The position numbers and the translations under genes were made by a program. 64,000 bases of DNA from an uncultured Gemmatimonadales bacterium (lineage in GTDB: Bacteria > Gemmatimonadota > Gemmatimonadetes > Longimicrobiales > RSA9): assembly GCA_963741945.1 (NCBI GenBank), contig CAVUKA010000003.1, positions 160,001 through 224,000 on the forward strand. The letters run 5' to 3'. Under the pieces are notes generated by a model. That model was not told the origin of the DNA, made no database searches, and worked only from the letters and a program-made list of their open reading frames with translations. Positions within the stretch are counted from its first letter, which is position 1. Each line of letters opens with the position of its first letter. Shown piece after piece: positions 45,992 through 50,117 of this stretch.

Positions 45992-47281
45992 CTAGTCGCC
46001 CCGTGAGTCCTCGCGGCGGATCCTCGCGCCGAGGGCCCTAAGGCGCTCGTCAATGTTCTGATACCCGCGCTCGATCTGCTGGATGTTGAAGATATGGCTC
46101 TCGCCTTCCGCGCCCAGGGCCGCGATCAGGAGCGCCATCCCGGCGCGGATGTCGGGGCTGTCCACCACCCCGGCATACAGTCGCGACGGCCCCACTACGA
46201 CGGCGCGGTGGGGATCGCACAGGACCACGCGCGCACCCATGCCGATGATCTTGTCCGCGAAGAACATCCGGGACTCGAACATCTTCTCGTGGATCAGGAT
46301 CGTGCCCTGGCACTGCGTCGCCACCACGAGGGCGATGGACGTGAGGTCGGCCGGGAACGCGGGCCATGGGCCATCGTCGATCTTCGGAATGTGGCCACCC
46401 AGGTCCATCCGGATCTCCAGCGCCTGGTTCCCGGGCACGTGGAGGTCATCGCCGCGGGCCACGCACCGGATCCCGAGGCGCTCGAACGCCAGGAGCGTGG
46501 AGTCGAGGTGCTGCAGCGCCGCATTCTCGATGAGGATATCGCCGCGCGTCACCGCGGCCAGACCGATGAAGGAACCCACCTCGATGTGATCGCTGGCGAT
46601 CCGGAAGGTACCGCCGCCGAGCCGGTCGACACCTTCGATCTCCAGCACGTGGGTACCGATTCCGGACACCTTCCCGCCCAGGGTGTTGATCATGTGGCAC
46701 AGGTCCTGGACGTGGGGCTCGGCCGCGGCGTTCCGCAGCTTCGTTGTACCCTTCGCCAGCGACGCGGCCATGACGGCGTTCTCCGTGGCCGTCACGCTCG
46801 GCTCGTCCAGGAAGATATCCGCCCCCTTCAGGCCATCGGCCTCGAGATGATAGCCGCCGCGTGTCTCCACCCGCGCGCCGAGGCGCTGCAGGGCCAGGAA
46901 GTGCGTGTCTACACGGCGGCGCCCGATCACATCGCCGCCCGGCGGCGGCAGCAGCATGCTTCCGAGGCGCGCGAGCATGGGGCCGGCCAGGAGGATGGAC
47001 GCCCGGATCCGGGCGGCCAGCTCCCGCTCCACTTCGGCTATCCGGATATCCTTCGCGTGGATCCGGACCCGGCCCGGGCCCTGCCATTGCACGTCGCAGC
47101 CGAGCTGCTCGAGGAGCTCCAGCAGTGTGCGCACGTCGCGGATGTCCGGTACGTTCTCCAGCGTCACTGGCTGATCGCTCAGGAGGGTCGCGCAGATGAT
47201 CGGTAGAGCCGCGTTCTTGTTTCCCGCGGGCCGGATGCGCCCGTTCAGCGGGACGCCCCCGTCCACGATGTATTTCGGCAT
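45992..47281 (-). CDS. murA: UDP-N-acetylglucosamine 1-carboxyvinyltransferase (Asp at the catalytic-loop Cys position)
   Basis: [40 protein letters not shown]. Start ATG 47281. Confidence 0.96.
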
Positions 47282-47346
47282 GGGCTCTCGAGTGAGTGAG
47301 CGAGTTCCGGCCCTCGAGCCGGTGGACGCCGGTGCAGCGTGAAAAA

Positions 47347-47376
47347 AACATACCGGCGCGCTGGAAGAAGCGCCAA
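47347..47376 (-). promoter_or_regulatory. Candidate sigma70 promoter of murA
   Basis: Minus strand TTGGCG-N18-TATGTT. Confidence 0.5.
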
Positions 47377-47398
47377 GCGATCCGGAGCCCCGGCCCGC

Positions 47399-47428
47399 TT
47401 GACGCACCGCGCCCGGGCCGTCTAGCTT
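47399..47428 (+). promoter_or_regulatory. Candidate sigma70 promoter of the EIIA-PII-antiporter operon
   Basis: TTGACG-N18-TAGCTT, 26 nt before ATG 47455. Confidence 0.6.
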
Positions 47429-47454
47429 GCCGCCAACGATCCCCCCTACTGCGC

Positions 47455-47922
47455 ATGCGACTCAGCGACTATCTGGAACCCGACCTCATCCTGCTGGACC
47501 TCCACACCACGGGGGTTCCGGACACGCTGGCGGCGTTCGCCCATCGCCTCGAAGAGAGCGGTCGCGCCGGCGACGCGGACGCCGTCCGCGAGGCGCTGCA
47601 GGAGCGAGAGGAAAGTCACACGACGTCCCTCGGCAATGGCGTGGCGCTCCCGCATGCCACGGTCCCCGGTCTGACGCATCCGGTGATCCTCATCGGAGTC
47701 GCTCCGGAAGGCGTCCATTTCGGCCGCGACGAGGACGCCGCCGTGTGTCGGCTCTTCTTCGTCCTGCTCTCGCCCCTCGAGCAGGCGGGTACGCACATCA
47801 AGCTCCTGGCCCGCATCGTACGGCTGGTTCGACACCCGGAATTCGTGGACGAGATCATGGCCGCGGACAGCGGTGCGGCGTTGATCCAGCGCATCGAGCG
47901 CGTAGACGCGCTGCACGTCTGA
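47455..47922 (+). CDS. Stand-alone PTS EIIA (fructose/mannitol/Ntr-type) domain protein
   Basis: RE...[12 protein letters not shown] (phospho-His motif), [13 protein letters not shown]. Confidence 0.92.
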
Positions 47923-47928
47923 GGCGCC

Positions 47929-48282
47929 ATGCAGCTGCTCATCGCGGTCATCAATCAGGAAGAGCGCCTGGACGACATCCTGTCCGGCTTCCTCGAGATC
48001 GGGATCACGGGCGCCACCATCATCGACAGCGAAGGGATGGGGCACGTCCTCTCCCACGACATCCCGATCTTCGCCGGGCTCCAGACGCTGATCTCCCGCT
48101 CTCGTCCGCAGAACACCACCATATTCAGTGTCATCGACAGCGAGGAGAAGGCGGAAGGGGCCATTGCGTTGCTGCAGGACATCTGCGGCGACCTGAACAA
48201 CCCGGCCACGGGGATCGCGTTCACCATCCCGGTGAACCGGGTGGCGGGCCTCGCCCCGGAGCTGGGATCCGGCGACCTTTGA
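47929..48282 (+). CDS. Non-canonical PII-like protein
   Basis: 117 aa PII pattern: LLIAVI...L..I...GITGATII...G.G...TGIAFTIPV..V.G; no Tyr in the whole protein and no C-terminal RxR. Confidence 0.85.
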   Translation: MQLLIAVINQEERLDDILSGFLEIGITGATIIDSEGMGHVLSHDIPIFAGLQTLISRSRPQNTTIFSVIDSEEKAEGAIALLQDICGDLNNPATGIAFTIPVNRVAGLAPELGSGDL

Positions 48283-48298
48283 CACCGGCGGCCCGCGC

Positions 48299-49552
48299 AT
48301 GGCCGTGAGTCCCCTGGTCGGCGTCCTCATCCTGGTCCTTCTGGGGCTGCTCGGCGCGCGATTCGCCTTCGATCCGGCCCGCTCACCCCTCGGGCCGCGT
48401 CTGGTACTCGCTACCGGCTCCCACTTCGTGCTGGTGGGCGTGCTCCTCGGCCCCGTCCTCGGGCTCCTCACCTACGACGTGATCGGGCGCCTGGAGCCGT
48501 TCATGGCCCTTGGGCTCGGCTGGATCGGCCTCCTCTTCGGGCTCCAGCTGGACCGACGACAGCTCCGCCAGTTCCCGCCCGCCTTCCTCTTCTTCACCCT
48601 CCTGCAAGCGGCCATCGCCTTCGTTGTCTTCGCCGCAGTGGCACTGGTCGCCTTCCGCCTCACGGGACCCGAAGATCCCATGGGTCCGGCTGCCGTCATG
48701 GCTGCGGCGGCCACGGCCGCGGTTTCCACCCCGGCGGGCGTGGCGCTCATCAGTCGCACGTTCCGGGTCCAGGGCCCGGTGACCCGGCTTCTCTTCTACG
48801 TCGCCAGCCTCGACGCCATCGTGGGGATCGTGGCGCTGCAGCTCACGTACGCCGTGTTCCACCCGGCCGCCGCCGCCGTGGGGGGCTTCGGGTGGGGCGT
48901 GTGGATGGGCGTGGCGCTCGCCATCGGGATCATCTTCGGCGTCTTCTTCCTCTGGCTGAGCCGACCCAAACCGGAGCGCGACGAGCTGACGCTGTTCCTC
49001 CTGGGGCTCGTGATGTTCGAAGCCGGAGCCGCGCTCTACCTGGGTATCTCGCCCCTTTTCGTGTCCATGATCACCGGCATCGTGGTGGCCAACATGTCGC
49101 CCTCGCGGCGACGGGCGTTCTCCATCCTCCAGAACTGGGAAAGACCCGTGTACGTGGTGGTCCTGATCCTGGCCGGTGCCCTCATCAGCTTCGCCGACTG
49201 GGTGACCATCCCGCTGGCCGTGGGGTATGCCGTACTGCGGAGCATGGCCAAGTACGCGGCGGGCGCGTTGAGCGCCTATCTCGTCCCCCTCCGCTTCACC
49301 GTTCCCAGCCAGATCGGCGGAGGGCTGATCGCGCAGGGCGGGATCAGTCTGGCCATGGGACTCAGCGCCACCTTAACTTACGGTGCTGTTGCGGGATCGG
49401 CCGGGGTGGCCGTGCGCGTCGTCATCGGTGCCATCGTGCTGGGCGTGGCCGCAAGCGAGCTTGTGGCACCGTTCGTCACGCGTGACCTGCTGCGCCGCGC
49501 CGGTGAGATCACGCCCGGCCACGAAACCGCGCTGGCGAAAGAGGCCGAGTGA
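48299..49552 (+). CDS. Cation:proton antiporter-like membrane protein (CPA2-like)
   Basis: About 12-13 hydrophobic segments; LGWIG..FGLQL, STPA, ASLD, SPL, LR..AK, QGG.S.A motifs. Confidence 0.75.
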   Translation: MAVSPLVGVLILVLLGLLGARFAFDPARSPLGPRLVLATGSHFVLVGVLLGPVLGLLTYDVIGRLEPFMALGLGWIGLLFGLQLDRRQLRQFPPAFLFFTLLQAAIAFVVFAAVALVAFRLTGPEDPMGPAAVMAAAATAAVSTPAGVALISRTFRVQGPVTRLLFYVASLDAIVGIVALQLTYAVFHPAAAAVGGFGWGVWMGVALAIGIIFGVFFLWLSRPKPERDELTLFLLGLVMFEAGAALYLGISPLFVSMITGIVVANMSPSRRRAFSILQNWERPVYVVVLILAGALISFADWVTIPLAVGYAVLRSMAKYAAGALSAYLVPLRFTVPSQIGGGLIAQGGISLAMGLSATLTYGAVAGSAGVAVRVVIGAIVLGVAASELVAPFVTRDLLRRAGEITPGHETALAKEAE

Positions 49553-49580
49553 TGCCGCTCACCACAACCGGACCCTAGCC

Positions 49581-50117
49581 ATGCAATCCTGGATGCTCCT
49601 CGCTCAGGCCCAGCCCGAGCTGATCTCGCACCTCGACAGGATCATGTGGGCACAGCTCGTCATGGCGGGAGTGATGGCCATCAGCGCCATCGTCGTGGTG
49701 GCTGCGGGATTGGCCATCCTCCTGATGGTTCGGCGTGCCATGAAGAAGATCGAGGAGGCGAAGAACGAGATCCTCCCCCACGTGACGCCCGTACTGAGCC
49801 GGGCGTCCACCATCGCCGATGATGTCCGCCACATCACTGCCGGCCTGCGCACCGACGCCAATGACGTGAACGAGACGGTTCGCGACTTCGTCACGCGCAC
49901 GAGAGGTGCCGTGGACTCGCTGGAACAGCGGGTGCAGCGGTTCGGGCTGGTGCTCGAGGTGGTGCAGGAGCAGGCGGAGTCGCTGCTCATGGACGCCGCG
50001 GCGACGGCGCGGGGCGTGCATACGACGGCCCGGGCGTTGCGGGACGACAAGCCGTCCAGCCCACGGGTCGGCACCCGGCGGGTCGAACGTTCTCCCAGAA
50101 AGCGGGATTCGCAATGA
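49581..50117 (+). CDS. DUF948/YtxG-like membrane-anchored helical protein
   Basis: One TM segment followed by a long amphipathic helical region; precedes a YtxH-like gene. Confidence 0.7.
   Translation: MQSWMLLAQAQPELISHLDRIMWAQLVMAGVMAISAIVVVAAGLAILLMVRRAMKKIEEAKNEILPHVTPVLSRASTIADDVRHITAGLRTDANDVNETVRDFVTRTRGAVDSLEQRVQRFGLVLEVVQEQAESLLMDAAATARGVHTTARALRDDKPSSPRVGTRRVERSPRKRDSQ

Follow-up and report, generated by a model that had tools for sequence, protein, structure and literature searches.

A 64,000-nucleotide stretch of DNA from an uncultured Gemmatimonadales bacterium (G000:C3:160001-224000; hereafter the window, whose own numbering is used unless a contig is named) carries three co-oriented genes at positions 47455-49552 of the plus strand. 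The genes encode a stand-alone EIIA protein of the phosphotransferase system (PTS), a PII-like signaling protein, and a membrane protein with the fold of the cation/proton antiporters (CPAs), and they are separated by spacers of 6 and 16 nt. The source genome (label G000) has a size of 4.09 Mb and is 96.7% complete; its nearest relatives are metagenome-assembled genomes (MAGs) of Longimicrobiales/Gemmatimonadota, and the G+C content of the window is approximately 69%. On balance, we consider it probable that the three genes form an operon and that EIIA and the PII-like protein constitute a dedicated module for the regulation of cation/proton antiporters.

PII proteins and the EIIA proteins of the nitrogen-related PTS (PTS-Ntr) are two of the most widespread metabolic signaling devices in bacteria, and each of them separately controls ion or nutrient transport. 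An operon that holds both, together with an antiporter-like protein, provides a concrete and testable system for the coupling of carbon or energy state with ion or pH homeostasis. A preliminary description of the locus, made from its letters and a list of open reading frames (ORFs), had proposed that PTS phosphorylation and a nucleotide signal converge on one K+ or Na+/H+ exchanger. The ORF map and the translations agree with the orientation and spacing that it gave, and profile searches place each product above the Pfam cut-off of the expected family (PTS_EIIA_2, P-II, and Na_H_Exchanger, respectively).

The EIIA protein and its phosphorelay

The first gene (47455..47922, plus strand) encodes an EIIA protein of 155 aa that belongs to the Fru/Mtl/Ntr class. 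Residues 6-148 match PTS_EIIA_2 (PF00359) with 93.6 bits against a cut-off of 27, and the orthologs measure 153-156 aa and share the same start Met. The putative phospho-acceptor, His67, is found by translation in the motif 'GVALPHA' (codon at 47653..47655), in keeping with the intact ALPH phospho-His described earlier. A His occupies this column in 92 of 93 EIIA proteins encoded beside PII-like genes, that is, in 54 of 55 from Gemmatimonadota (the window protein included) and in all 38 from other phyla. Against the NCBIfam equivalog model for PtsN (TIGR01419), the protein reaches 48.1 bits, below the cut-off of 138.7; two further EIIA paralogs in the genome likewise stay below it, with 81.6 and 72.4 bits.

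The source genome encodes HPr (PF00381, 106 bits), and reading of the translations identifies in the same gene cluster an EI-like ORF of 595 aa, an HprK-like ORF, and Man-type EII ORFs. Three more PTS_EIIA_2 genes are present, one of them joined to CBS domains. Since His67 is retained, HPr, EI, and HprK are encoded, and other PTS_EIIA_2 genes exist, the operon EIIA appears to be an extra, divergent paralog that is plausibly phosphorylated. The gene with CBS domains lies outside the window, at C8:95625-96506. It encodes a protein of 293 aa with PTS_EIIA_2 and two CBS domains, a fourth EIIA paralog and a possible nucleotide-sensing module; judged from translations, it lies between succinyl-CoA-synthetase-like genes, which immediately precede it, and an ndk-like gene.

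The PII-like protein

The second gene (47929..48282, plus strand) encodes a PII-like signaling protein of 117 aa. Its match to P-II (PF00543) reaches 29.8 bits, just above the cut-off of 25, its score against the NCBIfam GlnB equivalog NF008111 is 15.5 bits versus a cut-off of 202, and its best sequence E-value in the PDB, 0.0024, is that of a remote relative. The predicted structure, with a predicted local distance difference test (pLDDT) score of 89.9, nevertheless has the PII fold: all Foldseek matches listed (ranks 1-47) are PII-family proteins (GlnB, GlnK, GlnZ, and TT1020), with E about 5e-6 and TM-scores of 0.6-0.79. The T-loop region (residues 35-61; 48031..48111, plus strand) has a conserved core, 'GMG...L....PIF', in which G36 is kept in 91%, M37 in 81%, P46 in 92%, and F48 in 87% of 53 diverse family members. 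The model folds this region into two short helices with block pLDDT values of 86 and 76.

The marks of canonical PII are absent. The T-loop sites of canonical PII are Tyr51 for uridylylation or adenylylation and Ser49 for phosphorylation (by canonical numbering), and its nucleotide motifs are the B-loop 'GDGKIF' and a C-terminal RxR. The protein described here contains no Tyr, and in a HMMER alignment to 2gw8 its 'AGLQT' stands opposite the stretch 'RGAEY'; a T-loop modification site of the canonical kind is thus missing. The stretch opposite the canonical nucleotide motifs in the alignment to solved PII reads 'PATGIAFTIPVNRVAGL', with a B-loop that is Gly-rich yet non-canonical. Translation and alignment therefore uphold the earlier account of a PII-fold protein with neither Tyr nor RxR. 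SbtB-type proteins are characterized by adjacency to sbtA and by a C-terminal, Cys-containing redox extension; here, there is a single Cys, no SbtB-type C-terminal motif, and a PF00999 protein as neighbor.

The PII-like gene is the only PF00543 match in the source genome, in which no canonical PII was found. Nor did this 96.7% complete genome yield AmtB (PF00909), which 14 of 14 control genomes have. A gene for a DAC-domain cyclase makes c-di-AMP signaling available, and nothing ties c-di-AMP to the PII-like protein. As for the phylum, we rejected the idea that Gemmatimonadota lack canonical PII: 55 of 81 sampled genomes (unpublished genome G053 included) have some PF00543 hit, and many have hits of 80-99 bits; it is the source genome and its close kin that lack it.

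The membrane protein

The third gene (48299..49552, plus strand) encodes a divergent CPA-fold membrane protein of 417 aa. Its score against Na_H_Exchanger (PF00999), 43 bits with a cut-off of 26.2, is the lowest among eight paralogs in the genome, and NCBIfam gave no match. The predicted structure (pLDDT 90.3) is all-helical, with helices that run as far as residue 400, after which about 17 aa remain as a tail. Foldseek returns the NhaA/NapA-type fold on which the preliminary description had staked its proposal: PaNhaP (4cza, E 2e-9) leads, followed by SOS1, NHA2, NapA, MjNhaP1, and KefC, with query TM-scores (TMq) of 0.56-0.73 among the matches listed. No sequence match in the PDB was obtained for the protein or for a profile of 37 orthologous sequences. 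Because the protein has 417 aa, is helical throughout, and ends in this short tail, it has no C-terminal KTN/RCK domain, as had been noted from the letters; Rossmann-like tails are found on two other PF00999 paralogs in the genome.

All 37 orthologs retain D172 and K318, which supply the acidic residue at position 6 and the Lys/Arg at position 8 of the eight-position CPA motif. In the account of Masrati et al. (PMC6181914), an acidic position 6 with Lys at position 8 denotes the electrogenic type, and position 7 (D164 in EcNhaA) is ion-coordinating, with Asp found there in 94% of 6537 CPAs. The conserved 'GK' of DD-type CPAs lines up with K318, which, from motif and spacing, may be the equivalent of EcNhaA K300. 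D172 and A173 are encoded at 48812..48817 (plus strand), in the 'SLDA' of the helix equivalent to transmembrane helix 5 (TM5), where other CPAs have an ND or DD motif. PII-linked CPAs of other phyla have a 'DD' at this place, and MAFFT and hhalign agree in setting D172 against its first Asp and A173 against its second; the hhalign comparison with these DD-type proteins has a probability of 99.95% and an E-value of 6.8e-38. Because both alignments put A173 at motif position 7, the motif would read D6-A7-K8, and we refer to the protein as 'DA-type'. The replacement of the ion-coordinating Asp by Ala173 makes the earlier call of a K+ or Na+/H+ exchanger doubtful, and ion exchange itself is not assured.

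Outside Gemmatimonadota, Pfam at 1e-4 misses the homologs of this subfamily, which score 107-250 bits with a custom profile built on the CPA subfamily of the window. Some have no acidic residue at these columns: the homolog at L107 reads 'VTS', and that at L131, related to the subfamily with an hhalign E-value of 1.8e-45, has Arg at the D172 column. At five loci (L107, L131, L144, L150, and L151), a DA-type or fully degenerate CPA stands in tandem with a KD-type CPA, which has 'KD' at these columns, downstream of the PII-like gene, and such tandems may represent heteromeric CPA pairs. The source genome encodes two KD-type paralogs, neither linked to the operon (C1:736842-737954 and C3:826512-827648). 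These observations flag an unannotated CPA subfamily that is without the canonical ion-binding Asp and is often missed by Pfam.

Directly past the last helix, the ortholog alignment reveals a cytoplasmic tail motif, 'RRAGE' (49493..49507, plus strand), of the general form [KR][AS]GE. G402 and E403 of this motif are invariant in the 37 orthologs, and [KR][AS]GE tails are common to PII-linked CPAs across phyla. Within the genome, the tail occurs in only three of the eight PF00999 paralogs, namely the DA-type protein and the two KD-type proteins. We regard it as a candidate docking site.

Linkage in related Gemmatimonadota

Searches by tblastn with the window proteins (E<=1e-5) cover 80 related loci, some of them cut by contig ends, in which the PII-like protein is 69-92% identical to that of the window; identities are 37-66% for EIIA and 39-69% for the CPA protein. 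All three genes are present at 55 loci, EIIA and PII-like at 6, PII-like and CPA at 4, and PII-like alone at 15. EIIA accompanies 55 of the 59 loci that have the CPA gene versus 6 of the 21 that do not. The listed gaps between the PII-like and CPA genes range from -4 to 66 nt (415 nt at one locus with a broken gene), and a 4-nt overlap of stop and start codons is found at many loci. No KD-type CPA gene lies downstream of the operon at any of these 80 loci.

At the level of the phylum, a match to the PII-like protein (E<=1e-10) was found in only 19 of 81 sampled genomes, the unpublished G053 among them, and the notion that the gene is universally conserved in the phylum was rejected.

Linkage in other phyla

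An exhaustive search recovers relatives of the PII-like protein in 795 clusters (50% identity) at E<=0.001, 296 of them at E<=1e-10, so the family is a large one. Distant members were used as seeds of a locus search, and of the 80 loci that it returned, 79 were new. Of these, 78 could be annotated, L149 being without an ORF, and removal of three duplicates of contigs in the first set left 75. Two same-strand genes on each side were scored, and unannotated neighbors were rescored with the custom CPA-subfamily profile. The MAGs are labeled, among others, WOR-3, Latescibacterota, Zixibacteria, Nitrospirota, Omnitrophota, Aminicenantes, Calditrichota, and KSB1, with further labels of Spirochaetes, Planctomycetia, Clostridia, Glassbacteria, and one archaeon.

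Linkage to antiporter genes is found at 45 of the 75 distant loci. EIIA, CPA, and PII-like genes occur together at 25, in all three gene orders, and CPA and PII-like genes without EIIA at 14. At five loci, EIIA and PII-like genes are embedded among genes for Mrp/Mnh subunits (MbhE, MnhB, MnhC, and MnhE), and at one the PII-like gene is accompanied by MnhG only. Another 11 loci have EIIA and PII-like genes alone, and 19 have neither EIIA nor a CPA or Mrp gene beside the PII-like gene. Because the triplet recurs at 55 of 80 related loci and in other phyla, its adjacency is not a matter of chance; the preliminary description would have fallen had the genes failed to co-occur elsewhere, and they are found together in several phyla, in several gene orders, and within Mrp operons. 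The strongest argument for a regulatory module is the recurrence of the pair beside cation/proton antiporters whose architectures are unrelated.

The distant loci display recurrent arrangements of their own. In the Mrp/Mnh loci (L110, L115, and L165; L118, L142, and L133), the insertion has MbhE-like genes on one side and MnhB/MnhC genes on the other, or it immediately precedes MnhE. At L108, L111, L132, L134, L141, and L157, mostly labeled Calditrichota, the gene after the EIIA/PII-like pair encodes a Ser/Thr kinase with a PEGA domain, and no antiporter gene lies one or two positions away; L141 begins only with the PII-like gene, and histidyl-tRNA synthetase (HisRS) follows the kinase at L108, L132, and L157, the loci where a second downstream gene was scanned. 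At L127, L136, L138, L139, and L147, three of them labeled Clostridia, EIIA, CPA, and PII-like genes stand, in this order, before genes for a large HEAT-repeat protein and for an HD_5 (HD-GYP-like) protein. At the Zixibacteria-like loci L099, L100, and L102, a second, canonical-looking P-II gene (PF00543, 71-75 bits) lies directly downstream of the PII-like gene.

Fusions are rare. The sole EIIA-PII fusion (P0169) is a singleton on a contig of 1396 bp, and a locus search of genome contigs yielded no relatives of it; a PII-PilZ fusion (P0254) is a singleton on a short contig. Both being singletons, they count as leads only. The HD_5 neighbors and the PilZ fusion hint at a connection to c-di-GMP in some lineages. 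Longer PII-like forms among close relatives amount to seven hits, of which three were inspected and rejected as fusions: P0275 and P0276 resemble frameshifted or read-through gene calls, and P0277, in which a PII-like N-terminus is joined to an ABC ATPase, is not convincing.

Prediction of an EIIA/PII-like complex

Three copies of the PII-like protein were modeled with EIIA, and EIIA alone was scored as the partner. The prediction has an ipSAE of 0.48, against 0.01 for the best of three controls; at least 81% of contacts are shared between runs, and the partner has a pLDDT of 85 or more. The calibration of the tool has 58 of 80 solved complexes at or above its mark, against 2 of 110 mismatched pairs, and scores of 0.60 or below comprised 7 of the 80 solved complexes and both of the mismatched pairs that passed. 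The prediction thus places the EIIA/PII-like pair above the mark and above its controls, in a range shared with both passing mismatches, and lends weak support to the view that EIIA may bind the PII-like protein.

A proposed two-input module for cation/proton antiporters

In the model that we favor, EIIA would be charged on His67 by HPr~P and report the phosphorylation state of the EI/HPr relay, and the PII-like trimer would bind a small-molecule effector as a second input. The two proteins, separately or as a complex, would most likely bind the cytoplasmic face or the tail of the CPA protein. In this manner, the pair would regulate the activity of the neighboring CPA-fold protein post-translationally and might replace the missing RCK domain; it probably would also control the two unlinked CPA paralogs that have the same [KR][AS]GE tail. 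Physical binding, the small-molecule ligand, the sense in which control operates, and the ion that is moved all enter the model as suppositions.

Functional coupling of EIIA, the PII-like protein, and cation/proton antiporters is supported by their wide co-occurrence, by the NhaA/NapA-type fold, and by the presence of the relay, and to this extent the earlier proposal is supported in part. The part that named a single exchanger fares less well: Ala173 makes the exchange activity doubtful, and the antiporter cannot be the sole partner of the PII-like protein, because the PII-like gene persists at loci without the other two genes.

A broader version can be put forward only tentatively, as a possibility that we hold to be somewhat short of probable. 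It states that a widespread, uncharacterized PII subfamily and a dedicated EIIA make up a two-input switch on cation/proton antiporters of three architectures, with the [KR][AS]GE tail for docking; these architectures are the DD-type CPA2, the degenerate DA-type CPA, either alone or paired with a KD type, and the multisubunit Mrp. If true, it would extend PII control to non-trimeric transporters and be the first case of a hard-wired physical connection between PTS and PII signaling.

Several observations weigh against the favored model, and some of them speak for an unlikely alternative: the PII-like protein may be a general signal transducer whose primary targets lie elsewhere and which is merely co-transcribed with the other two genes, without direct gating of an antiporter. 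The PII-like gene is patchy in the phylum, as described above, and it stands without EIIA or CPA at 15 of 80 related loci (some of these cut by contig ends) and without EIIA or any CPA or Mrp gene at 19 of 75 distant loci. In five of five genomes with a lone PII-like gene, the CPA-subfamily profile finds nothing at E<=0.001, and the same profile matches five of five positive-control genomes with E about 1e-160; the gene is thus kept where this CPA subfamily is absent. Identities of 69-92% make the protein far better conserved than EIIA (37-66%) or the CPA protein (39-69%), the genome yielded no other PF00543 match and no AmtB, and related genes have other recurrent contexts, such as UPF0047/TamB or the Ser/Thr kinase with HisRS. 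The sole fusion of EIIA and PII is the singleton on a short contig, and CPA proteins are dimers whereas PII proteins are trimers. According to a 2023 review (PMC10710835), PII regulation seems restricted to trimeric transporters, a view that the favored model would challenge. Accidental co-transcription is nonetheless hard to reconcile with linkage at 45 of 75 distant loci that spans many phyla, shuffled gene orders, and antiporters as different as DD-type CPA2, DA-type plus KD-type CPA, and Mrp.

A further difficulty is the missing position-7 Asp, with A173 in its place. It leads to an explanation that we consider rather improbable, in which the membrane protein is a degenerate CPA-fold anchor, a sensor, a partner subunit (for example, in a heterodimer with a KD-type CPA), or a carrier of another substrate. 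The replaced Asp is near-universal (PMC6181914). Homologs in other phyla lack any acidic residue at these columns (L107 and L131), proteins of this type stand in tandem with KD-type CPAs at five loci, and the window protein has the lowest PF00999 score of the eight paralogs and no sequence match in the PDB. D172 and K318 are, on the other hand, invariant in all 37 orthologs, as would be expected of a working TM5-TM10 pair, and a KD-type partner gene follows the operon at none of the 80 related loci. KefC has the motif Q-D, and an alignment error of one residue, which is possible, would restore an 'LD' motif in the window protein that resembles it. The notion that three unrelated genes are adjacent without functional meaning is very improbable in view of the triplet at 55 of 80 related loci, the association of the pair with antiporter genes across phyla and gene orders, and the overlaps of stop and start codons at many loci.

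Comparison with known systems

The closest functional parallel on the side of EIIA is E. coli PtsN, which in its unphosphorylated form binds and inhibits the CPA1 K+/H+ antiporter YcgO, according to two reports (PMC11808508; bioRxiv 10.64898/2026.08.14.744764). In that system, a stand-alone EIIA of the PTS_EIIA_2 family controls a cation/proton antiporter post-translationally through the phosphorylation state of its His, and here the His is kept and the relay is present. The docking site of PtsN on YcgO consists of cytoplasmic RCK and CorC domains, whereas the membrane protein of the window has no cytoplasmic domain. In addition, ptsN and ycgO are unlinked in E. coli and no PII is involved, and the EIIA described here stays under the PtsN equivalog cut-off.

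On the side of PII, the same 2023 review (PMC10710835) describes gating of AmtB and SbtA through insertion or locking of the T-loop, and its table of PII-regulated transporters contains only AmtB, Amt1, NrtABCD, UrtABCDE, and SbtA. As in GlnK-AmtB and SbtB-SbtA, the gene for a small PII-fold protein adjoins that for a secondary transporter, and the T-loop of the window protein has a conserved core. The differences are that the targets would be CPA or Mrp antiporters, which are not trimers, that an EIIA gene accompanies the pair, and that no AmtB was found in the genome. There is also no site of the Tyr51 or Ser49 type and no nucleotide motif of the canonical GDGK or RxR form. Canonical PII (GlnB, GlnK, and GlnZ) has the same fold, and the window protein belongs to a distant subfamily (PDB E 0.0024; GlnB equivalog 15.5 versus 202 bits). 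With the c-di-AMP-binding proteins PstA/DarA, it shares a PII-like fold tied to signaling in ion homeostasis, and the genome has the DAC-domain cyclase gene; the Foldseek matches listed (ranks 1-47) are, in contrast, to GlnB/GlnK/GlnZ and TT1020 and not to PstA. An affinity capture with Azospirillum GlnZ retrieved TrkA and a putative EIIA-Ntr, an interaction that was reported as not confirmed by pull-down (PMC7646526). The capture hints that PII and EIIA-Ntr signals can meet on the transport of K+ or other cations.

With the CPA2 antiporters NapA, NhaA, and KefC, the membrane protein shares the fold, the Lys at the TM10 position (K318), and the Asp at motif position 6 (D172); it differs from them by the Ala at motif position 7, the lack of an RCK domain, and the lack of a sequence match to any solved CPA. 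A full-text search of the openly accessible literature returned no description of the three-part arrangement, and the preliminary description had likewise known of no experimental account. The arrangement would extend known kinds of control, namely those of GlnK-AmtB, SbtB-SbtA, and PtsN-YcgO. Its range covers Gemmatimonadota and MAGs labeled WOR-3, Latescibacterota, Zixibacteria, Omnitrophota, Aminicenantes, Calditrichota, KSB1, Clostridia, Spirochaetes, Planctomycetia, and one archaeon.

Genomic context of the operon

The intergenic region upstream of the EIIA gene (47282..47454, 173 nt) separates it from a divergent murA and is the presumed promoter region of the operon. A promoter-like site ahead of the three genes had been reported; it could not be confirmed, because a consensus scan gave no sigma-70-like site across the 173-nt spacer and its sole match lies inside the EIIA gene. 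Rfam gave no credible RNA family in 47100-49800 (E<=1). Pfam annotation of nine flanking genes places nusA, rimP, genes for a Cu-oxidase_4 protein and a phasin-like protein, and murA upstream, and genes for DUF948-like, YtxH-like, Zn-phospholipase-C-like, and M61 peptidase proteins downstream. None of the nine encodes EIIB, EIIC, or AmtB, in line with what had been reported from the letters.

The divergent murA gene occupies 45992-47281 of the minus strand, with a likely start at 'MPKYIV' and an EPSP_synthase score of 229.7 bits. A murA-type gene of the EPSP_synthase family adjoins the module here and at L087, L088, L089, and L091, on MAGs labeled WOR-3 or Bacteroidales or left unclassified; at these four loci, it lies on the same strand, one to two genes downstream. 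The PII-like gene is followed at L087, L088, L090, and L091 by one for an unannotated protein that measures 423-428 aa and has no Pfam match.

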